DNA from: an uncultured Spirochaetota bacterium
GTDB lineage: Bacteria; Spirochaetota; Brevinematia; Brevinematales; JAOACQ01
Length of the DNA: 64,000 nucleotides
NCBI GenBank assembly: GCA_963783575.1
Contig: CAWAOD010000016.1
Location: 224,001 to 288,000 of the forward strand
Reading direction: 5' to 3'
Shown: in pieces, positions 14,857 through 57,207 of the stretch
Layout: every line of letters begins with the position of its first letter
Numbering within the stretch: position 1 is the stretch's first letter
Position numbers and translations under genes: made by a program
Notes under the pieces: model-generated
The model's input: only the letters and a program-made list of their open reading frames with translations
Told to the model about the DNA's origin: nothing
Database searches by the model: none

Positions 14857-17043
14857 TTATTTTTTTGCGTATTCGATCCGTTTATGATAGTATCCCGACA
14901 GAAACTTAAAGAATTCTTCAGCTACAATTCTCAAGTCATAAAGAGTTATATCACAGTTGTCGAATTGTCCCTTTTCCATTCTCTTTTTTATAATATCATC
15001 AATTATGTCTTCAATAATATTCGTGGTAAATCTTTCATTATTTTGTGAATATGCCCTGACCGAAGCCTCAATACCGTCGGCAAGCATCAGTATAGCGGTG
15101 CCTTTTGTATGCGGTTTGGGACCCTGGTATTCATAATCCTCAATGTTAACATTCTCATCACCGAAAAGCCCAAGCGCCTGGTGATAAAAATAAGATATCG
15201 CAGTTGTCCCATGATGTTCTTTTATATAATCTATTACTTCATCCGGCAGCCTGTATTTTTTAGCCAGTTCAATGCCTGACTTAACGTGGGATTTGATAAC
15301 GGAGACGGACATTGAGACCTTTATTTCATCATGCCTGTTGTCTCCTTCCTGATTTTCAATAAAATATTGGGGAATTTCAATCTTACCAATATCATGGTAA
15401 TATCCGCCGGCTTTCGCAAGCAGTGAGTCAATGCCGAGTTTTTCAGCCGCAGCCTCGCACATATCGCCAAGTAGAAGCGAATGGTTATATGTACCGGGGG
15501 CTTCAATTTTCAGTTTCTTTAAGAGAGGGCTTGTTGTAGGATTTGTTAATTCTATAAGCCTGAACCTTGTCGGTATATTGAAAATATTTTCCAGGAGAGG
15601 CATTATTCCCGAGCTTATAATTGCGCTGATCAACCCGTTTCCGAATGAAAATAAAATAATGATGATCCATTCATACAAACCCATTTGTGAGATGCCAAAG
15701 TGCCTAACTTCACTGTTGAATATAAAATAAATAACTGAAAATACACATTCGATCAAACCTATAATCAGGGCAATGACAAAGAAATCATTCCTTTTTTTCA
15801 GAAGCTGCGATGTATAAATGGCGGAAAATGAGATAATAACAAGGTTTAAATACGTAATAAAGTCAAATGAGGGGTAAAACAATAAAAAAAATGAATATGA
15901 TATCATAAGAATAATGGCTACTCTTGTGTTATTCAGCAGAACCGGGAGCGATATGGATACAATGGCGAAAGGTATGGCCAGGAAATAAGGAATAAAGGGA
16001 ATTTCACTGTAGATATATATGGAATAATAAATGGCATTTACAAATATAAACCCAAGCATCGCCATATATAAATTGTAGTTTTTTGAAAACGTATCGCTTT
16101 CATATTTATAAAAACGGTAGATCAGGAACAGGTATAAAATCAGTGATAATAAATAATATATCCATAGTTTGGTTTTTAAATCATTTGTTTTATATTCAGT
16201 ATAAGCGATTATCTTTGCGTAGTTTTCCTCTGTAACCGTTTCTCCCCTATGAATTAGAAATTCACCGGCGTTAATCACCCTGTTGTCTTTAAGTTCCTGA
16301 ACTTCCAGTTGAATCATTTCATTCCTGATCTTAGGATCCCTGATTGCAAAAGGACGGGCAACATTAATAAAGATTTCAGAAAGCGAAGCTTTTAAAAGCG
16401 GTTCCATACCCGGGTAAATTCTATTCATATAGGATAGAACAAATTGTATATCAAGAGGATATACAATGGTTTTGTCGATCTGTACTTTTTCTATACCGGT
16501 TTTTTTTACTATTTCATAGTAATTGATACCTTGTATCGGACCCAATTCATCAATAATCGTATACTGGGAGGATATGATCTGGTAAATATATATCAGACGG
16601 TTTATGTATTTACTAATGAATTTTCTGTTTTTTAAAAGGTAATTATAGGTTTCCAGAGTAAACTGAAACTCTTTTTGATTAAAATCAAGTATAAGATTGT
16701 TTTCATCTTCAAGCAGGATATCTGAAAAATGCCTTAAATCATTATTGTAAATTTCCTCATGATTTTCGATAAAACTATAGTATTGCGGATTATTCGATTC
16801 GATCGATCTTACTAATTTTTCCAGTTCGAATTTATCGGAATAAAGAAAAGTGTATTCGGAACGTATCGTGCCTTTGGATATGCTGCCGATTTGATAATGC
16901 TTTATATCCGGTATAAGATGGCTTATTGTTATAAAAACAACAACCAGCAGGTATGTAAGGACAAATAACAATACCTGCCTGTAATTATGTGATTTGAGCC
17001 ATTCAAGTATCCGTCCGGCTATCTGGCTGTAATTTCTTTCCAT
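14857..17043 (-). CDS. 7TM-HD (HDIG) phosphohydrolase, PgpH-like c-di-AMP phosphodiesterase family
   Basis: Extracellular domain and 7TM region, then APGTYNHS, YYHDIGK, EHHGT, LMLAD; lies downstream of phoH. Confidence 0.88.
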   Translation of the reverse strand: MERNYSQIAGRILEWLKSHNYRQVLLFVLTYLLVVVFITISHLIPDIKHYQIGSISKGTIRSEYTFLYSDKFELEKLVRSIESNNPQYYSFIENHEEIYNNDLRHFSDILLEDENNLILDFNQKEFQFTLETYNYLLKNRKFISKYINRLIYIYQIISSQYTIIDELGPIQGINYYEIVKKTGIEKVQIDKTIVYPLDIQFVLSYMNRIYPGMEPLLKASLSEIFINVARPFAIRDPKIRNEMIQLEVQELKDNRVINAGEFLIHRGETVTEENYAKIIAYTEYKTNDLKTKLWIYYLLSLILYLFLIYRFYKYESDTFSKNYNLYMAMLGFIFVNAIYYSIYIYSEIPFIPYFLAIPFAIVSISLPVLLNNTRVAIILMISYSFFLLFYPSFDFITYLNLVIISFSAIYTSQLLKKRNDFFVIALIIGLIECVFSVIYFIFNSEVRHFGISQMGLYEWIIIILFSFGNGLISAIISSGIMPLLENIFNIPTRFRLIELTNPTTSPLLKKLKIEAPGTYNHSLLLGDMCEAAAEKLGIDSLLAKAGGYYHDIGKIEIPQYFIENQEGDNRHDEIKVSMSVSVIKSHVKSGIELAKKYRLPDEVIDYIKEHHGTTAISYFYHQALGLFGDENVNIEDYEYQGPKPHTKGTAILMLADGIEASVRAYSQNNERFTTNIIEDIIDDIIKKRMEKGQFDNCDITLYDLRIVAEEFFKFLSGYYHKRIEYAKK

Positions 17044-32966: not shown

Positions 32967-33006
32967 TTGCTCTTGGAATAATAAATATTATGAGAGGTAT
33001 ACCGGT

Positions 33007-34933
33007 ATGAAGATAACTTTTCCCGACGGCAGTGTGAAGGATTTTGAAACCGGTGCGACCGGATTTAACGTGGCAGTTTCAATTTCAGAAGGTTTAGCGC
33101 GAAATGCCGCCGCTTTTTCTATGAATGGAAAAATGTATGATATGGCATCACCGCTGCCTGGCGACTGCTCGATAAGAATATTGACCTTTAATGACAGGGA
33201 AGGAATTGATATTTTAAGGCACAGCACGGCTCATGTAATGTCATATGCCGTGACGAGAACTTTTCCCTGGTGTAAAACTTGCAATCGGGCCCGTTATTGA
33301 AGACGGTTTTTATTATGACTTTGATAATGCCGAATTGAAGAATTCGGATTTTGAAAGAATTGAAGCGGAAATGAAAAAGATCATTTCGGAGAAAATCCCT
33401 TTTGAAAGGATTGCGGTTTCGAGGGAAGAGGCCCTCAGTCTTTTTAAGAACGAACCATACAAAATCGAGCTTATAAACGAATTACCCGAAGGGGAAGAAA
33501 TCACAATCTACCGCCTGGGGAGTTTCACCGACCTTTGCAAGGGACCTCATCTGCCGAATGCGGGAATGATCAGTGCCTACAAGCTGCTGAGGATCGCCGG
33601 CGCATACTGGAGGGGTGATTCTAAGAATAAGATGCTGATGCGCGTATATGCTACCTGTTTTCCAAATTCCAGGGAACTGAATTCATACCTTGAAATGCGA
33701 AGGACGGCTGAGGAAAATGATCATAACAAGCTTGGGCGCGAGCTCGATCTGTTCATAACCGACAAGGATATCGGACAGGGGCTTCCACTTCTTACGCACC
33801 GCGGAGCGGTGATCAAGCAGGTTTTACAGAGATGGATCGAGGATGAGGAGTTCAAAAGGGGCTACAAGATAACCGCAACACCTTTCATGGCAAAGAGCAA
33901 CCTCTATAAGCTTTCCGGGCATTGGGATCATTACCGGGACGGGATGTTCATTTTCAAGGGAGATGAAAATAAAGGCGGATAAGAGGATCTTTACGGTCTG
34001 CGTCCCATGACATGTCCTTTCCAGTTTAAATTGTACAACCGAAAAAAACACAGCTATAAAGAACTGCCCGTTCGATATGCGGAAACTTCTACTTTATTCC
34101 GCAACGAATCTTCAGGTGAGATGCATGGCTTAATCCGGGTCAGGCAGTTTACGCTTTCGGATGCCCATATAATCTGTCTTCCCGATCAGGTGGAAACAGA
34201 ATTTATGAACGCTCTGGATTTGGTCACATATGTGATGGATACGCTCGGTTTAAAAGACAATATCACATACAGGTTTTCAAAATGGGACCCAAAAAATAAA
34301 GAAAAGTATATCGACAATCCGGAAGCATGGGAGAATTCGCAGGCTGTTCTTAAGAAAATACTCGATAAGTCCGGTTTGTCTTATTTTGAAGCAGACGGCG
34401 AGGCGGCATTTTACGGGCCGAAGCTGGACATCCAGTTTAAGAATGTCTGGGGAAAGGAGGACACAATAATAACATTACAGATTGATTTTGCCCTACCCGG
34501 AAGGTTCAATATGAAATATACCGACAGCGATGGTTCCGAGAAAACGCCGATGGTTGTTCACCGTTCCTCCATAGGATGCTATGAGAGGACAATGGCAACC
34601 CTTATCGAAAGATATGCCGGTAAATTCCCTTTCTGGATTTCTCCCGAACAGGTCCGCATACTTACTGTGAATGATACTCTTTCGGATTATGCTCATTCAA
34701 TCCGGAATAAGCTTATGGAGAGCCAGATCCGGGCTGAAGTTGATGATTCATCCGAAACATTGAACAAAAAAGTTCTGAACGCCCGGAAAGAGTACATTCC
34801 CGCAATCGTCACAGTGGGCAATAAGGAAAAAGAGGCCGGTACCATATCGGTCAGAACACTTGACGGAAAAGTCAAATTCGGCCTGGCATCGGATGAATTT
34901 ATCGGTAAATGCCGCAATCTTTGCGATACTTGA
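33007..34933 (+). pseudogene. thrS: Threonyl-tRNA synthetase with a +1 indel (~33258) and an in-frame TAA (33980-33982); true pseudogene or sequence error
   Basis: TGS domain, RHSTAH, DLCKGPH, GAYWRG, SGHWDHY, RPMTCP, RVRQFTLSDAH, AFYGPKLD, anticodon-binding domain. Confidence 0.93.
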
Positions 34934-39500: not shown

Positions 39501-41191
39501 CAGACTGTGTGAAAACTCAGTAAAATTTTATAGTAAAATCGATTAATTATACAAAAACTCCATTTTTTGATATATTTTTCAAGCTAAAAAAATCTTAGTT
39601 TAAAAAATCTATCCGAATACGATAAACGATGGTTTATTAGCATCAAACCAGAGTCATAAGTCTCTTTATTCCCAATATATTCAATACTTTTATTAAATTA
39701 TGAATGAATCCTGCCAAACTGGATTCCGTCAGAACGCCATCCTTTCCCTTCATTAAAAAATAACTGTAACCCATATTCCTTTTTATCGATCCAAATGGAT
39801 GTTCACATATCTCTTTCCTTTTCTCTATGATCTTTTTCCCGGCTTCAGAACGAATTTTCCTCTTGAAGTTCTCAATTTCTTCTTTTCTAACTGGTACTTT
39901 GATACTTCGTCCTTCCACGCTTTCAGTACACTTATTTCTTACTTCACATTGGCTGCATAAGCCGCACTTGTACCTGACTATCTCTTTTCCTCCATTGACC
40001 TTCTCTACTTTTTTCCCATTTCTCACTAATGGGTTTCCCTCCGGACAATAATAAACATTTTGTCCCGGATCATATTTGAATTTATCAACCTGGTATTCTT
40101 CAGCAGGTACTCCTTTATTATCTTCTTTGCCTCGAATCCTTGCCTTATGTCCGTCATCCGGATTCGGCATATATACGTTATGTCCCTTATCTATACATTC
40201 CAGTATCTGCGGTTCGCTGTAATAACCGGCATCCGATACTTTGACCGTTTCAGTCTCTACCTTAAGCTCGTCCTTTATTTCTTCTACTCGGTCACACATT
40301 CCTGCCATCTGTTTGATATCATTGTTTTCATTCGTCACATCAATCGCCACAATCAGTTTATTCGCATCATCTACTGCCATCTGCAGATTATATGCAATGT
40401 CGGATTTCCCTTTATCATTCATAAACCGGCTTTCCGGGTCATTTGAATAATATTTCTCCATTTCAGGATTTCCCTCAAAAATCTTTTTAATAGCCTCAAC
40501 TTTATCCTTTTTTGTTTTCATTTTCTTTAAACGTTCCGCTATCTTTCCGGAAAGAAATTCAAATTCATTCTTTTCTTCCTTATCGTTCTTATCCATCTCA
40601 TTCAAATATTCTTCGATCTTTTGATCTATTCTATGTATGATTTCTTCTATGTTTTTCCTATGATAAACATTGTTATTGTGGTTTTGCGCACTGATCTTGG
40701 TTCCATCAATTCCAACAACGTCAAATGATAAAAGCCCGGCTTTATGACATATCTTCAAAAATTCTCTGAATATCGACTGTATTCCCTTCTTATTATCTTT
40801 CCTGAAGTCGGCAATCGTCTTGAAATCCGGCGCTAGTCGTCCAGTCAGCCACATCAACTCTGTGTTTCTTCGGCACTCTCTCTCTAATTTCCTGCTTGTC
40901 CTGATTTTATTCAAATATCCGTAAATATAGATTTTTAAAAGTATTTCGGATTTATATGAACTTCTGCCGGTTGATGCTTCTTTTACTTTAAAACCAACTC
41001 CTTTCATATTTAGCTTATCAACAAAAATATCTATAAACCTTACCGGATCTTCTTCTCCTAACAGATCTTCCAGTGTTTCATTGAACAGAACTATCTGATC
41101 CCTTGATTCTCCCTCAATATGCTTCATCTCTTACTCCGATTATTTTTGTTCTAATAATTATAGCATATTTACTGTGTTTTCACACAGTCTG
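39501..41191 (-). mobile_element. IS1182-family insertion sequence
   Basis: 24-bp inverted repeats cagactgtgtgaaaac(t/a)cagtaaa at 39501-39524 and 41168-41191; ttg duplicated on the flanks. Confidence 0.9.
39643..41127 (-). CDS. IS1182-family DDE transposase (intact)
   Basis: LLKIYIYGY...SRKLER...PDFKTIADFRK, IDGTK, DAGY, YYCPEG, RKEICEHPFGSIK. Confidence 0.93.
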   Translation of the reverse strand: MKHIEGESRDQIVLFNETLEDLLGEEDPVRFIDIFVDKLNMKGVGFKVKEASTGRSSYKSEILLKIYIYGYLNKIRTSRKLERECRRNTELMWLTGRLAPDFKTIADFRKDNKKGIQSIFREFLKICHKAGLLSFDVVGIDGTKISAQNHNNNVYHRKNIEEIIHRIDQKIEEYLNEMDKNDKEEKNEFEFLSGKIAERLKKMKTKKDKVEAIKKIFEGNPEMEKYYSNDPESRFMNDKGKSDIAYNLQMAVDDANKLIVAIDVTNENNDIKQMAGMCDRVEEIKDELKVETETVKVSDAGYYSEPQILECIDKGHNVYMPNPDDGHKARIRGKEDNKGVPAEEYQVDKFKYDPGQNVYYCPEGNPLVRNGKKVEKVNGGKEIVRYKCGLCSQCEVRNKCTESVEGRSIKVPVRKEEIENFKRKIRSEAGKKIIEKRKEICEHPFGSIKRNMGYSYFLMKGKDGVLTESSLAGFIHNLIKVLNILGIKRLMTLV

Positions 41192-41322
41192 TTGACGAAT
41201 GGGTGACAAGTTTTTATGTAATTATAGTCATTCTTCGTCAAGCTCAGTATGACGCTTATGGCATAAATTAGTTTTTAGAACTGCCCATAAATAAATTTTT
41301 AATAACTATTTTTAAAATTTAC

Positions 41323-41376
41323 TTGACAATCTGAAATTTTTATGGTATTCTATATCATACTAATTATATAGGAATA
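41323..41376 (+). promoter_or_regulatory. Promoter and candidate Rrf2 autoregulatory operator
   Basis: ttgaca (41323), 17-bp spacer, TG-extended tattct (41346), followed by the imperfect palindrome atcatactaattatataggaat. Confidence 0.65.
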
Positions 41377-41397
41377 ATATAATATTAGGAACCTGGA

Positions 41398-41832
41398 ATG
41401 AAATTATCTACAAAATCAAGATACGGCGTCAGGCTGATGCTTGAGCTTGCAGTGAATTATCAAAGGGGATATGTCCAGCTTAATGAAATAGCAAAAAATC
41501 AAAACATTCCCGGGAAATATTCCGAGCAGATTATCAGCCAGTTAAAATCGGCAGGCCTGGTGCAGTCACAGAGAGGCGCAATGGGAGGATATATTCTTTC
41601 AAAAAATCCCTCTGAAATTAATCTGGAGAATATTGTTGAAATACTTGAGGGAAATTTATCGCTATTGGATTGTCTTGAAGACGGCCTTTGCGAAAAAAAC
41701 GGAATGTGCCCATCTCAAAACGTATGGAGAAAGCTGTCAATTGCAATGACTGAGACGCTTGAAAATATTACGCTTGAGAATATGCTGGATGATTATAAAA
41801 TTCTAAATAATATGCTTACTTTTGATATTTAA
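41398..41832 (+). CDS. Rrf2-family transcriptional regulator (CymR/IscR-like)
   Basis: MKLSTKSRYG, SQRGAMGGY, three Cys (CLEDGLC...C); upstream of cysK. Confidence 0.9.
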   Translation: MKLSTKSRYGVRLMLELAVNYQRGYVQLNEIAKNQNIPGKYSEQIISQLKSAGLVQSQRGAMGGYILSKNPSEINLENIVEILEGNLSLLDCLEDGLCEKNGMCPSQNVWRKLSIAMTETLENITLENMLDDYKILNNMLTFDI

Positions 41833-41874
41833 ATTATTTTATTATGCTAACAGACGGTAGAATTATAAAATAAA

Positions 41875-42035
41875 CAGTTTTTTATACCCCGGTATCCGGC
41901 CTGAGAAACTGCAGATTGTAATTTTATAGAAGTGATAAAAAAAAATAGTTAACAAGTGGTTTAATTCAAGATATGCAGATAAGTGAAATAATCTAATGAA
42001 ATCACTTCCATAAAATTACAATAAGGAGGAATCAT
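41875..42035 (+). promoter_or_regulatory. Structured leader, copy 1 (before cysK)
   Basis: Near-identical to 43024-43187; contains a 22-bp inverted repeat (41915-41936 / 42001-42022) abutting the RBS. Confidence 0.7.
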
Positions 42036-42959
42036 ATGAAAGTCGCGAATAGCATTACGGATTTAATCGGTAATACGCCGCTTGTCAGGCTGAATAAACT
42101 TGCGGAGGGCCTGCAGGCTGAAGTACTGCTGAAACTGGAGTTTTTTAACCCGCTTTCCAGTATAAAGGATAGAATCGGTCTCGCTATGATCGAAGACACT
42201 GAAAAGCGCGGATTGATCAAAAAAGATACCGTTATAATCGAACCGACAAGCGGTAATACGGGAATAGCCCTGGCATTTGTCTGCGCGGCAAAAGGTTACA
42301 GGCTTATACTTGCAATGCCTGAAACATTCAGCCTTGAAAGAAGAAAGCTCCTGAAGATATTTGGGGCCGAACTTATTTTAACTGAAGGGGCAAAAGGAAT
42401 GGCTGGCGCCGTCGAAAAGGCGGAGGAACTACTGAAGCAGTTTCCTTCGGCTTTTATGCCACAGCAGTTCAAGAATCCTGCAAATCCGGAAATTCATAGG
42501 AAAACCACTGCCGAAGAAATCTGGAAAGACACCGAAGGTAAAGTGGACTTCCTTGTGGCGGGGATCGGCACAGGCGGCTCACTAACCGGTATAAGTGAAG
42601 TAATCAAAAGCAGAAAACCAGGTTTTAGGACCATAGCGGTTGAGCCGTCGGATTCGCCGATTTTATCGGGGGGAAAACCGGGACCGCATAAAATACAGGG
42701 CATAGGACCGAACTTTATTCCGGAGGTTCTTAATACCAAAATCATCGATGAGGTGATACAGGTAAAACATGAAGATGCTGGGGCAACATCCAGGCTTTTA
42801 GCAAAAAAGGAAGGCATTCTGGCCGGGATTTCTTCCGGGGCAAATGTATGGGCAGCTATCCAGGTTGCTAAAAGACCGGATAATAAAGGGAAAACTATTA
42901 TTACCATTATTCCTGACACGGGAGAAAGGTATCTCAGCACCTGGCTTTTTGATGAATAG
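42036..42959 (+). CDS. cysK: Cysteine synthase A
   Basis: [39 protein letters not shown]. Confidence 0.96.
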
Positions 42960-43023
42960 TGACTGAGTAACTTCCATAATAGTTGTTAAGTTTTGATAAG
43001 CTTAACATCAATGATATACAGCC

Positions 43024-43187
43024 GCAGTTTTTTTACACCCCGGTATTCGGCCTGAGAAAAACTGCAGAATTTTATGGAAGTGACAAAAAAAACAATAGTT
43101 AACAAGGTGATTAATTCAGGATATACAAATAAGTGAAATAATCTAATGAAGTCACTTCCATAAAATTACAATAAGGAGGAAAATAAA
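43024..43187 (+). promoter_or_regulatory. Structured leader, copy 2 (before metY)
   Basis: Perfect 17-bp inverted repeat (43068-43084 / 43151-43167) plus upstream hairpin gcagttttt...aaaaactgc. Confidence 0.7.
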
Positions 43188-44486
43188 ATGAGTGATTTTA
43201 GCCTTGAAAAGGCGGGGTTTGATACCCAAGCACTGCACGCAGGGCAGAAAGTTGATGAAACCACATCGAGAGGAGTCCCGATTTACAGGACAAGCTCCTT
43301 TATATTCAAGAGTGCGGAACATGCCGCCAATTTGTTTGGTTTGAAGGAATTTGGCAATATTTATACCCGCCTTACAAATCCAACGAATTCCGTCCTTGAG
43401 GAGCGAATTACCAAACTTGAAGGAGGAGCTGCGTCGGTATCGGTATCATCAGGAACAAGCGGAGTTTTTTATGCAATCATCAATCTGGCAAAAGTAGGCG
43501 ATGAAATTGTGTCGGCATCAAACCTTTACGGAGGCACATATACGATGTTCGACGCAATTCTTCCCGACCTCGGGATTACCGTCAAATTTGCAGATCATAA
43601 AGACCCGTTAAGCTTTGAGAAATTGATCACCCCAAAAACACGGGCTCTGTTTATTGAAACGATCGGCAACCCGGTGCTTGACTTTACGGATATTGGCGCG
43701 ATATCTGCTGTGGCAAAAAAGCATCATATTCCCTTGATTGTTGACGCTACCTTTACTACACCTTATTTGTTCAGATCAATCGAGCATGGCGCAAACATAG
43801 TGGTTAACTCGCTAACAAAATGGATAGGCGGCCATGGTACGGCGATCGGCGGGATTGTAACCGATGCCGGCAATTTCGACTGGTCTGATAAGAAATTCAC
43901 ACTTTTTAACGAGCCCGACAAAAATTATCATGGACTGCGCTGGGCGATTGACCTGGATAATTCCCTCAAGCCGATCGCATACGCTTTAAGGTTCAGGACC
44001 GTTCCTCTCCGCAACCTTGGCGCATGTTTAGCGCCGGATAATTCGTGGATATTTCTTCAGGGAACTGAAACGCTTCATGTAAGAATGCCAAGGCACAGTG
44101 AAAACGCACTTGCAGTGGCCGAATTCCTGAAAAAGCATCCGAAAGTTTCCTGGGTTCGATATCCGGGACTGAAAGATGACCCAACATATCCTATAGCCAG
44201 CAAGTATTTGAAAAAGGGGTTCGGAGGGATGGTTGTATTCGGAGTAAAGGGAGGCAGACCAGCTGGGGAAAAACTGATCGAAAGCCTGAAATTGTTTTCA
44301 CACCTCGCGAATGTCGGCGATGCAAAGTCGCTGGCGCTACATCCGGCCAGCACATCACACTCCCAGCTTTCCGAGGAACAGCAGAAAGAAGGCGGTCTGA
44401 CACCTGATCTTGTAAGGTTATCAATTGGGTTGGAAAATATCGGCGATATCAAAGCCGATCTGGACCAGGCTTTGGCGAAAGCTTAA
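43188..44486 (+). CDS. metY: O-acetylhomoserine/O-acetylserine sulfhydrylase
   Basis: GNIYTRLTNPT, LYGGT, SLTKWIGGHG, HLANVGDAKSL, RLSIGLE. Confidence 0.93.
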   Translation: MSDFSLEKAGFDTQALHAGQKVDETTSRGVPIYRTSSFIFKSAEHAANLFGLKEFGNIYTRLTNPTNSVLEERITKLEGGAASVSVSSGTSGVFYAIINLAKVGDEIVSASNLYGGTYTMFDAILPDLGITVKFADHKDPLSFEKLITPKTRALFIETIGNPVLDFTDIGAISAVAKKHHIPLIVDATFTTPYLFRSIEHGANIVVNSLTKWIGGHGTAIGGIVTDAGNFDWSDKKFTLFNEPDKNYHGLRWAIDLDNSLKPIAYALRFRTVPLRNLGACLAPDNSWIFLQGTETLHVRMPRHSENALAVAEFLKKHPKVSWVRYPGLKDDPTYPIASKYLKKGFGGMVVFGVKGGRPAGEKLIESLKLFSHLANVGDAKSLALHPASTSHSQLSEEQQKEGGLTPDLVRLSIGLENIGDIKADLDQALAKA

Positions 44487-44517
44487 ATCTTATCAATTCA
44501 TAAATAAATTCTGTATA

Positions 44518-44552
44518 ATCCGCCGGATATTTTCCGGCGGATAATTATTTTG
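44518..44552 (+). terminator. Hairpin terminator after metY
   Basis: atccgccgga-tattt-tccggcggat followed by an AT-rich tract. Confidence 0.7.
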
Positions 44553-44644
44553 ATTATATCAAAATAATTTTCAAATAAAGTTATGTCGAGCCAGTTTGCT
44601 TCAGAACTTTTTTGTTTATGTTTTTACCAATCTCAAAAATGAGA

Positions 44645-45427
44645 TTACTTTTTCATAAACATTGCGGATATCCCGGTTACAAGTAATCTTGGTGTCAATC
44701 TCAGACTAAATATCAACCACCAGTTCAGTAATCCAGTGATCACATAAGATTTTTTTTGTGCAAGCGCCCTGTAGCCGATATTCGCCACTTTATTTGCGTC
44801 CATTGCAAGGTATTTAAAATAAGGTGTTGCTTCAATATCCGCTTTTTTCGCGAATTCAGTCACCGTTGCTCCGGGACACAACGCTGTAATGCAAACACCG
44901 CAAGATCGAAGTTCATAACCGATTGCTTCACTTAAACTAAGGATATAGGCCTTAGTTGCACAATATACTGCGTTATATGGATTGGGTGCAAATGCTCCTG
45001 TGGAAGCCAGGTTTAATATCCATCCCCGTTGCTTCCGCTTCATATCCTCAGAAAAAAGGCGGCATAATACGGATGGTACTTCCAGATTGACTGTGATTAA
45101 ACCTTTAATATCATTCATTCTTGAATATGCAAAATCACCGTATACCTGATATCCGGCATTATTAACAAGGATATCAATTCCGCCTTTTTTCTGTACCTCG
45201 TAAAATAATTTATCCGGGGCACCTTCTTCCAGTAAATCCACTGCAATAATCTCAACGTTAACCTGATATATTTCCCTGATATTCCGTGCGGTATCCTCGA
45301 GAACTGCTGCATTTCTGCCGTGTAGTATAAGTGAATGACAACTTTTTGCAAAGCGATAAGCGAGAGCCAATCCAATACCGCTGGTTGCCCCTGTTATTAA
45401 TGCTCTTCCCTGTAAAATTTTTTTCAC
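44645..45427 (-). CDS. SDR-family oxidoreductase
   Basis: TGATSGIG, NNAG, YCATK. Confidence 0.92.
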   Translation of the reverse strand: MKKILQGRALITGATSGIGLALAYRFAKSCHSLILHGRNAAVLEDTARNIREIYQVNVEIIAVDLLEEGAPDKLFYEVQKKGGIDILVNNAGYQVYGDFAYSRMNDIKGLITVNLEVPSVLCRLFSEDMKRKQRGWILNLASTGAFAPNPYNAVYCATKAYILSLSEAIGYELRSCGVCITALCPGATVTEFAKKADIEATPYFKYLAMDANKVANIGYRALAQKKSYVITGLLNWWLIFSLRLTPRLLVTGISAMFMKK

Positions 45428-54784: not shown

Positions 54785-57207
54785 ATGGTTTTGAAAATTA
54801 TAAAAACTCTGGATTATAAGGAAATGTCTTTGAAAGAAACCTTTGAATTTCAAGAAACATCGGCCGCCGGACTAACCGTAGCAGAGGGCTGTCGGCCGCC
54901 TCGCGCTATTTGGAAAGAATGAGATAACAGAAAAAAAGACAAATTATTTATTGGAATTTTTACTGCGATACTGGGGTCCAATGCCGTGGCTGATGGAAAT
55001 CGCCATGGCGCTATCGTTTGTTTTGAAGCATAATACCGAAGGAATAATTATTTTAGCATTGCTGACGATTAACTCCATTATCGGGCAAATGAATTCCACA
55101 GGATCGCATAAAGCAATCGAACTTTTGAAAAAGAAGCTAGCCATAAATTCAAAAGTATTACGCGACGGGAAGTGGATAATTGGGACTGCAAAAGATCTTG
55201 TGCCGGGTGATATTATTGTAGTTAAGCTTGGGGATATAGTCCCTGCTGACGCTAAAATTATAGATGGGGAGGTATCGGTAGACGAATCCGCCTTAACGGG
55301 GGAATCCCTGCCTGTAAATACCGGGGAATCGGGTGTTATTTATTCGGGTTCCATAGTAAAACGGGGTGAAACTAAATGTATTGTAATTAATACCGGCGCA
55401 AATACTTACTTCGGCAAAACCGCCGAACTGGTCAGGCAAGCGCAGCCTGTATCGCATCAGAAAAAAGTTATGCTGGATGTAGTCAAATATATGATGTACC
55501 TGAGCCTTATCGCGGCAATGTCCGTTTCTATATACGCTTTTTTTATTCATGTAAGTCTTTTATTTATATTGACCTTTGTCGTAATATTCTTAATGGGAGC
55601 CGTTCCGGTTGCCCTTCCGGCTGTTCTTACCATAGTTCAATCTGTCGGCGCTATGGAACTTGCAAAAAAGGGAGTGCTGGTAACCAGGCTTGATGCGATT
55701 GAGGATTCGGCTTCCATTGATGTGCTTTGCTTTGATAAGACCGGCACCATTACGCAAAACAAGCTGTCGGTAATAGACAGCGCGGCGTTCTACGGTTATA
55801 AAAAGGAGGATGTTGTTTCCGTGGCGGCTTTTGGCATCCCAAGAGCAGGGAATGGACTTAATAGACCTCGCGGTTATTGAATACGCCAAAAATATCAAAG
55901 CGGATTTGACAGGATATAAACAGGTTGAATATTTACCGTTTAATCCGTCAAAAAAAAGCACACAGGCGGTTATCGAAAATTACGGCAAGCGCTTTAACGC
56001 AATTAAAGGCGCGGCCCAGATAATAATGGGAATGTGTCCTGAAATAGACAAAAAAAGTGCGGATAATATAAAAAAAACAATAGAGGAATTTTCTCAAAAA
56101 GGATACCGGACAATTGCTGTTGCAAGGTCACCTGACGGCGAAATGAACAAACTGGAATTTGCCGGACTGCTTGCGTTAGCTGACCCTCCACGTCCGGATT
56201 CAAAAAGCATGATAGAAGAGGCAAGAAAGCTTGGAATAAAACCAATGATGCTTACCGGGGACGGCATTTTCATCGCCAAGGAAATAGCGTTGCAAACGGG
56301 TATCGGCGGTAATATTATCCGGTTCTTAGATATTCAGGATTTGATTGAAACTGAACAGATCAAGGTTATAAATGAAATTGACGGGTTCGCGGAGATCTAT
56401 CCCGAGGATAAATACCGGATAGTGAAATTACTTCAATCAACCGGTCACTTAGTCGGAATGACGGGCGATGGGGTGAATGACGCTCCTGCGCTAAAACAAG
56501 CAGAGATGGGTATAGCCGTTAGCAACGCGGCTGATGTGGCCAAAACATCTGCCAGTGTAGTCTTAACCGGTTCCGGGATAGAGTTAGTAATTGAAGCGGT
56601 TAAAACAAGCAGGCGAATTTATCAAAGGATGCTGACATGGGTTTTAAACAAGGTTACGAAAGTAATAGAAATTATTTGTTTATTAGCGATTGGTTTTTTC
56701 TGGCTTCATGATATGGTGCTTTCACTTTTAGGCATATCATTACTTGTATTCGCAAATGATTTTGTTACCATGTCTCTTGCAGGCGATAATGTAAAATCTA
56801 CCGTAAACCCCAATAAATGGAACGTAAGAAAAATCACTTTTGTTTCCTTAATTCCCGGCCTGTTGTTAGTAGCGGAGGATTTACTCGTGATAATAGCATG
56901 CAGGAATTATTTTCATCTGGATTGGGAAAAAATGCGAACTATGATTATGTTGAATCTTGTATTTAACAGCCAGTTCAGGGTATTGATTATAAGGGAAAGA
57001 ACTCACTTCTGGTCTTCGATGCCCGGGAAAGGGTTGATAATTTCCAGCCTGATAACAATAATTGTGTTTTTGCTGATAAGCGTAACCGGTTTTATTGTCC
57101 CGGCGATTGCTTTAAACCAAATTCTCGCTGTCCTGGGGTTATCAGCGTTGTTTGTTTTCTTTGTTGATTTTCCTAAATGCTATTTTTATAAAAGATTCGG
57201 ATTATAA
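54785..57207 (+). CDS. P-type (IIIA) plasma-membrane proton-efflux ATPase with two +1 indels (~54886, ~55830)
   Basis: WGPMPW, LTGES, VPVALP, DKTGT, KGA, DPPR, MLTGD, TGDGVNDAPALK. Confidence 0.9.

Follow-up and report, generated by a model that had tools for sequence, protein, structure and literature searches.

SAM riboswitches and T-boxes are the usual RNA controls before methionine and cysteine genes. At the protein level, Rrf2 regulators of the CymR type control cysteine genes and regulate their own expression. In Ruminiclostridium, tandem intergenic stem-loops without sequence conservation direct transcript cutting and protect ends (PMC10311766, PMC4423207). In E. coli, RNase III requires 11 bp beside the cut (PMC1540722). 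We compared with these systems a sulfur operon in a window of 64,000 nucleotides, the whole stretch of DNA analysed here, in which one leader block occurs before both cysK and metY. The reading that we prefer, at about even chances, is that the leaders are a lineage-private block that originated, probably recently, by local rearrangement, was copied from RBS to RBS, and would serve the mRNA as a constitutive element for RNase III/Y processing and for stabilisation.

The operon is encoded on one strand in the order rrf2 (41398-41832), cysK (42036-42959) and metY (43188-44486), and the operon features given below are on the plus strand. The first gene encodes an Rrf2-family regulator (CymR/IscR-like). 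It was over the cut-off of the Rrf2 superfamily model and under the cut-off of both the CymR and IscR equivalog models, with 118 bits for CymR against the 195 bits required. The cysteine synthase A encoded by cysK and the O-acetylhomoserine/O-acetylserine (OAH/OAS) sulfhydrylase encoded by metY were over the cut-offs of TIGR01139 and TIGR01326, respectively. Scans of the operon region gave a single promoter 5' of rrf2 and a single terminator 3' of metY. The promoter was of the sigma70 type (TTGACA-17-TATTCT with an extended -10, 41323..41351) and had the top score among 13 regional sites; the TTGACA-17 layout also precedes rrf2/cysK/metY in relatives. The terminator scan placed the terminator-like hairpin that closes the operon at about 44518..44552. 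An IS1182-family element was observed at 39643-41311; near-identical matches to its end number about 30 genome-wide. This element sits in a smaller repeat (41192-41311), also present elsewhere in the genome, just upstream of the operon promoter. In addition, the genome carries a second rrf2-cysK-metY operon at C16:24969-28121, with CysK 85%, MetY 67% and Rrf2 65% identical to the proteins of the window. A methyltransferase-like ORF lies downstream of the second operon, and a 169-nt 3' fragment of a window-type metY lies upstream of it (91% identical, dS 0.30). Since this fragment precedes the paralogous operon, it pointed to an earlier duplication and cutting of the operon in the window.

An Rrf2-operator-like palindrome was located over the predicted transcription start at 41353..41376. 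With a matrix built from 15 sites in the loci of relatives, it scored 18.8 and was the top of 329 genome matches above 12, a rank that is somewhat favoured because the pattern used to choose the training sites had been drawn from these promoters, the window's included. The palindrome reads roughly TCATA[C/G]T-N7-TA[G/T]GA and lies over the predicted start of rrf2/cysK/metY operons across the order (loci L024-L033, L043 and L057). An extra site was seen inside the long rrf2-cysK gap of two relatives (L025 and L031). Judged from its conservation alone, the palindrome probably serves a CymR-like Rrf2 protein as operator, and sulfur sensing is likely done by this protein at the promoter operator via autoregulation. 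The best scores of the leaders with the same matrix were -1.0 and 4.0, and neither copy held an operator-like site.

The two leaders are near-identical spacers of about 160 nt, copy 1 at 41875-42031 before cysK and copy 2 at 43024-43181 before metY, with 87% identity over 158 nt. The duplicated unit, about 157 nt long, starts at the first hairpin 1 base and extends to the Shine-Dalgarno (SD) sequence and AAGGAGGAA. The spacer sequence 5' of hairpin 1 was unrelated between the copies (p 0.6-0.84), and the unit starts exactly at the hairpin base, a boundary easier to reconcile with selection or a mobile unit than with a random break. Hairpin 1 occupies 41875..41911 in copy 1 (about -12 kcal/mol; -12.1) without a U-tract 3' of it, and 43024..43065 in copy 2 (about -16 kcal/mol; -15.8). 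It is followed by a long inverted repeat. In copy 1, this repeat spans 41915..42022, with arms at 41915-41936 and 42001-42022 around a 64-nt A-rich loop; 21 of 22 positions are paired, with one A.C mismatch and no G-U, and the stem abuts the SD (0 nt). In copy 2, it spans 43068..43167, with arms at 43068-43084 and 43151-43167 around a 66-nt loop; all 17 positions are paired, and 5 nt separate the stem from the SD. The SD AAGGAGG lies within the duplicated unit in both cases, at 42023..42029 for cysK (ATG at 42036) and at 43173..43179 for metY (ATG at 43188). The sole small frame shared by the leaders is the 5-codon MKSLP, and the remaining frames differ between the copies. Sequence comparison also revealed a 14-nt stretch just 3' of the cysK stop (42966..42979) with a 13/14 match to the 3' arm of copy 2. 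It is possibly a scar of the duplication and a transient pairing partner of the 5' arm.

Both leaders folded better than shuffled sequences, with z values of -3.46 for copy 1 and -5.80 for copy 2, and 0 of 200 shuffles were as good for each. Hairpin 1 alone gave z values of -3.6 and -4.3, and the loop was unstructured (z 0.7 in copy 1 and -0.6 in copy 2). The long stem had energies of -21.4 and -25.3 kcal/mol in copies 1 and 2 and was predicted to be almost fully formed once transcribed, with its arms 1-6% unpaired. The middle of hairpin 1 adopted different pairing registers in the two minimum-energy folds, and the strand asymmetry of folding was small and mixed. The original prediction had described two copies of this size in an Rrf2 operon, each with a hairpin and a long stem that ends 0-5 nt before AAGGAGG, and our analysis agreed with it on all of these points.

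The operon was conserved and compact in relatives. The cysK-metY gap was 10-57 nt in 19/19 relative operons (median 19) versus 228 nt here, a count that excludes three loci, two because their MetY-like gene is distant (31-32%) and one because its cysK is truncated. The rrf2-cysK gap was at most 18 nt in 13 of 16 relatives and 160, 186 and 764 nt in the other three; here it is 203 nt. The paralogous operon of the same genome has gaps of 75 and 38 nt. Since the operon is conserved and compact in relatives, the block is a derived addition.

We searched the genome (a 4.9 Mb assembly, 90% complete) with blastn, a covariance model and a fuzzy search of four sub-parts, and exactly two leader copies were obtained, both in this one operon. 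The many scattered copies that the original prediction had named as the mark of a MITE were thus not seen in its proposed genome-wide BLASTN count. Rfam gave 0 matches in the 64-kb window at gathering thresholds. When E values up to 10 were allowed over 41100-44700, five weak matches appeared, none of them on the leaders, in agreement with the claim that no known SAM riboswitch or T-box is present. A SAM-I riboswitch was not found in the genome. Resemblances to TPP, c-di-GMP and SECIS elements were dropped, as Rfam had no match on the leaders. A sigma54 reading was also set aside by eye, the spacing being different in the two copies.

In the 42 further class genomes, blastn and the covariance model gave no leader homologue, the one blastn match (E 7e-4) being a coding A-run. 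When the model was run without filters on 19 loci that carry homologous operons, among them 4 of 14 distant metagenome Rrf2 loci, no homologue emerged either (best E 0.45). Those 14 loci were what the metagenome query with the Rrf2 protein returned, at 27-49% identity and with no close relative among them. Across 400 phylum genomes there was no full-length match, and 7 genomes had short matches at E <5e-4. A clustering of phylum matches on the 5' arm was at first read as an IS end; this was rejected when the 12 loci inspected, all 8 loci of these short matches and 4 others, proved to be A-rich chance matches in coding or unrelated DNA. The exact 20-mer of the GC-rich core was found twice in GTDB genomes, each time within a long alphaproteobacterial ORF, and the core with three mismatches had 5 matches in the class, all within ORFs. 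The stem pattern had 0 matches in metagenomes and the arm 0 in viral contigs. With 2 mismatches, the arm pattern occurred at most twice per genome across 300 phylum genomes, near the reversed-pattern control. Plasmid and phage collections gave just 16-25% query cover at E 0.5. A description of such a leader was not found in the literature searched, and an uncurated motif in the supplements of motif-discovery papers is possible. The leader block is private to this genome among those searched. A genus-private motif would be missed, because the sole same-genus genome compared is 57% complete and without the operon, and the closest CysK and MetY are 85-86% identical.

These searches bore directly on the proposal of the original prediction that the leaders are a riboswitch-like or conserved protein-bound sulfur cis-RNA. 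Homologous leaders before cysK or metY were not found across the 19 operon loci. The absence of conservation and covariation in relatives, which extended over 42 class genomes, 400 phylum genomes, GTDB and metagenomes, spoke against the proposal. A new riboswitch-type sulfur family was not supported, as neither conservation in several lineages nor an expression platform was found. The block may be under selection in this lineage alone or may merely be tolerated, the closest comparisons including no same-species genome and no complete same-genus genome.

A narrower form of the idea is that the block is a young, selected cis-regulatory RNA, switched by a protein, a metabolite or the ribosome that finishes the upstream gene, which tunes cysK and metY separately. 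Both helices are retained in both copies, the unit boundaries coincide with the structural boundaries, the GC-rich core is nearly invariant, and both copies precede sulfhydrylase genes and differ by one compensatory pair. In copy 2, moreover, a decoy pairing is predicted between the 5' arm and the 14-nt stretch that follows the cysK stop. This pairing would last until the 3' arm is made and would be lessened when a ribosome covers the stretch. However, this competing strand exists in copy 2 alone and is the weaker partner, at a predicted -14.7 kcal/mol versus -22.2 kcal/mol. Folding with a blocked arm gave no alternative structure in which the SD of both copies is hidden or freed. When the 5' arm was blocked, SD unpairing moved in opposite directions in the two copies, from 0.63 to 0.50 and from 0.31 to 0.69. 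In addition, the terminator scan called no terminator on either leader copy, and neither leader held a Cys/Met leader-peptide uORF of the kind that an attenuator uses. The core matches all lay in ORFs, no collection searched held a homologue, and the structure was not conserved beyond the rest of the block. We consider a young regulatory RNA quite unlikely.

The differences between the copies were examined for traces of selection. Before the SD there are 11 substitutions (2 in hairpin 1, 3 in the arms and 6 in the loop) plus four indels. The arms differ at 3/39 sites and the loop at 6/64 (Fisher p 1.0), and the arms were thus no more conserved than the loop. The innermost pair of the long stem is T-A in one copy and C-G in the other. 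This is the compensatory change that the original prediction had reported, and it is real, with a chance of independent mutation of p 0.017-0.046 in a simulation with two sequences. Its C/T change in hairpin 1, which keeps G-C or G-U, is also real; this change closes a 3-nt loop that the fold of copy 2 opens to 5 nt. The third arm change breaks a pair (the A.C of copy 1), and copy 2 is without 5 nt of the 5' arm and has lost 5 pairs. The description of the leaders as covarying goes back to one compensatory pair in two sequences, which also show one broken pair and a 5-bp loss. A pair-count shuffle control gave 229/500, a figure that is uninformative with two sequences and with the broken pair left out of the structure used.

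Simulated change gave a similar picture. Starting from a model ancestor with the best pairing, we split the observed changes randomly between two lineages; the summed folding energy was kept equally well in 47.5% of 1000 trials. Random mutation from copy 2 to the state of copy 1 left folding as good in 19% of trials, and the stability of copy 2 was reached from copy 1 in 0.3% of trials, a figure that bears on the ancestral state alone, for which copy 1 is an unlikely candidate. Since random change retained folding as well and the arms were no more conserved than the loop, the two copies showed no measurable sign of selection on leader structure since the duplication. If the duplication is as old as the metY fragment (dS 0.30), the 8% divergence of the copies means that they are 3-4 times more conserved than synonymous sites. 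The length differences in T-runs and A-runs between the copies may be assembly errors, as indel errors occur nearby: thrS is broken and a P-type ATPase gene is split in the same window. In thrS (33000-34933), a frameshift lies near 33300 and an in-frame TAA near 33980, and breakage of this gene points to assembly errors because the gene is essential. The P-type ATPase at 54951-57207 is split into two overlapping ORFs by a frameshift or an assembly error. A perfect long stem and one compensatory pair in two paralogous copies call for caution, and they are weak evidence for an RNA family because DNA-level copying yields the same picture.

Such errors raised the question of whether the repeat or the duplication is itself an assembly or amplification artefact. 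Besides thrS with its frameshift and stop, a 167-bp fold-back exists on contig C6, where an inverted duplication at 15392-15821 falls within an apparent ribosomal protein gene and is probably a fold-back chimera of the assembly. However, the leader copies differ by 11 substitutions and each has its own matching arms, which a single chimera would not give, and the flanking genes are intact. An artefact is very improbable.

For the preferred reading, local rearrangement followed by transcript processing, we propose the following course. The sequence before an RBS would have been copied in reverse about 65 nt upstream by template switching, which would give the 5' arm and a perfect long stem free of G-U pairs. 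Template switching can produce perfect stems and compensatory pairs in one event and is documented mostly across short loops (PMC8794818). A tandem duplication and deletion through the homology shared at AAGGAGGAA and the arm may then have placed the second copy before metY, with the 14-nt stretch behind cysK as its scar. The near-copy of the 3' arm at the cysK stop had p 0.016 by shuffles, post hoc, and a comparable one was seen in 25/3078 control genes. In copy 1, the loop has a 3' half that looks like a decayed junction of hairpin end, RBS and start (p 0.002, also post hoc), a likeness not seen in copy 2 (p 0.57), and the cysK start ranks 20-44 of 1100 gene starts for this resemblance. In addition, the 3' arm resembles the pre-SD sequence in 2 of the 5 closest metY orthologues (top 2-5%) and in some distant ones. 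These three post hoc clues, each modest and none strong, would fit a tandem duplication and deletion through RBS homology.

In the transcript, RNase III, or RNase Y beside the stem, would cut the long stem and create new cysK and metY 5' ends a few bases before the SD. Hairpin 1 would shield the 3' end of the upstream cistron, and a long stem left uncut against the SD would damp initiation. Cutting would be fixed and constitutive, with no metabolite sensing by the leader. RNase III and RNase Y are encoded, with models over cut-off, and RNase J and RNase E/G were not found in the genome at 90% completeness. The long stem of 17-22 bp exceeds the 11 bp needed by the E. coli enzyme, and RNase III processing of the leaders, one of the options that the original prediction had offered, is plausible on anatomical grounds. 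The leaders are stable stem-loops between co-transcribed genes in a host with a suitable endoribonuclease, as in elements of the SRPS type (processing/stabilising). They are likely a processing-type intergenic stem-loop, a class assigned by probable action, and they are not placed in any RNA family. A more elaborate version, to which we give a small chance, is that a de novo hairpin-plus-stem cassette arose, that RNase III releases each cistron from it, and that the ribosome finishing cysK gates metY through the 14-nt decoy, in a post-transcriptional sulfur control absent from relatives.

The genome background was surveyed for comparable structures, which this genome turned out to form readily. 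Non-coding duplications of 100-400 bp in two copies numbered 27, and 7 of these, the leaders included, had both copies within 3.5 kb on one contig. The seven close-range spacer duplications span 139-207 bp, some of them are gene-end remnants, and one other pair also ends before the starts of two neighbouring genes. The six other direct repeats (139-207 bp, 82-94% identical) each flank one or two genes, at C9:49795/53081, C14:55247/57142, C5:144068/147507, C9:394605/396994, C13:148279/149483 and C15:48108/49603, and they may mark a common gene-insertion route in this genome. Inverted repeats with arms of at least 17 nt and spacers of 30-150 nt numbered 22, several of which were IS-derived minis. 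Intergenic inverted repeats of 19-24 bp with A/T-rich interiors of 63-100 nt were seen at C13:38969-39112, C4:58444-58548 and C11:78403-78513, and they are candidates for invertible promoters or low-copy MITEs. Among 2300 SD-plus-ORF sites, 17 rows (16 distinct) had a stem of at least 14 Watson-Crick pairs ending at most 9 nt from the SD. The leaders ranked second and fourth among these stems, and the first and one other belonged to a 150-bp MITE. This family comprises C13:165265-165427 and 19 further sites, 20 copies in all at 91-100% identity. Its target duplications seem to vary in length, its flanks are often GC-rich and hairpin-like, and two copies end just before an SD. A 16/17 match of 41869-41885 to this MITE was not significant (p 0.28).

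The long inverted repeat could accordingly be read as a low-copy MITE of about 104 bp, with ends TGT...ACA and AT flanks, that jumped once before an RBS, after which the region with hairpin 1 was duplicated; the element would then be a Correia-like RNase III substrate. Ends of the TG...CA type are typical of DDE elements, and the repeat has them. Its arms are perfect Watson-Crick partners, free of G-U, and enclose an unstructured A/T-rich sequence. Terminal inverted repeats (22- and 17-nt arms) thus bound a short non-coding interior of 64-66 nt. The genome is rich in IS elements and holds IS-end minis and the 20-copy MITE, two copies of which give the same stem-before-SD shape, and in Neisseria, RNase III cuts the CREE/Correia elements (PMC2649163, PMC10969869). 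However, there was no third copy and no dispersed site, and both copies lie in one operon with shared flanks. No autonomous partner was found, the best arm match in repeat families of at least 3 copies being 15/21 in the 90% complete genome. Arm pattern counts were control-like in the 300 phylum genomes, with none in viral contigs. As a target-site duplication, the AT flanks of copy 1 are palindromic and indistinguishable from the arms, and the duplication took in hairpin 1 and the SD, which are not part of the repeat. We regard a MITE origin as unlikely.

The block could also act as DNA. An internal promoter cassette (A-tract and TTAACA-17-TATRCA) between inverted repeats, possibly invertible, would allow Rrf2-independent expression of cysK and metY. 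Reading the sequence gave a weak promoter-like pattern in each loop, with an A-tract and TTAACA-17-TATGCA at 41949..41977 in copy 1 and with TATACA as -10 at 43099-43127 in copy 2. The loop size suits a promoter, the -35-like hexamer and the 17-nt spacing are common to both copies, and the arms of the two copies could recombine with each other. In addition, two relatives (L025 and L031) have an internal operator or promoter in the long rrf2-cysK gap. However, the -10-like box is without the final T in both copies, and the promoter scan made no call there. Both loops have the same orientation, and the flipped orientation was no better promoter by eye. No recombinase was seen among 25 neighbouring ORFs scanned, and the leaders are without an operator-like site. 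A promoter cassette has a low probability.

On the preferred reading, that of a private duplication which probably affects mRNA processing as a side effect, the leaders matter little in themselves. If the cassette is functional, it would be a rare snapshot of a processing element arising and spreading within an operon. The conserved Rrf2-operator-like palindrome of the order's cysteine/methionine operons is a better-supported by-product of this work.

The leaders were finally set against the known systems. They share the position 5' of cysK and metY with SAM riboswitches and T-boxes but differ from them in having no Rfam match, terminator, anti-SD switch or conservation. As in CymR-type Rrf2 control, rrf2 heads the cysK operon here and a conserved palindrome lies over the transcription start; this likeness, however, concerns the operon promoter rather than the leaders, and the protein is under the CymR cut-off. 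With Neisseria Correia/CREE elements and with the genome's own 150-bp MITE, the leaders share an A/T-rich interior, a place 5' of genes, a size of about 100-150 bp and inverted repeats of about 20 bp at the ends (PMC2649163, PMC10969869). Those elements number tens to hundreds of copies spread over unrelated sites (PMC2649163, PMC10969869), whereas the leaders are two copies in one operon, co-duplicated with a hairpin and the SD, and have no partner IS. With SRPS of the Ruminiclostridium type, the leaders share two consecutive intercistronic stem-loops, a long stem below -15 kcal/mol, an RNase Y host and a freedom from conserved sequence (PMC10311766). The Ruminiclostridium elements described there are GC-rich hairpins with mapped cuts and are unlike one another (PMC10311766). 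In contrast, the leaders are one block present twice, with an AU-rich stem and a 65-nt loop abutting the SD, and their cuts are predicted, in a genome where no RNase J was found.
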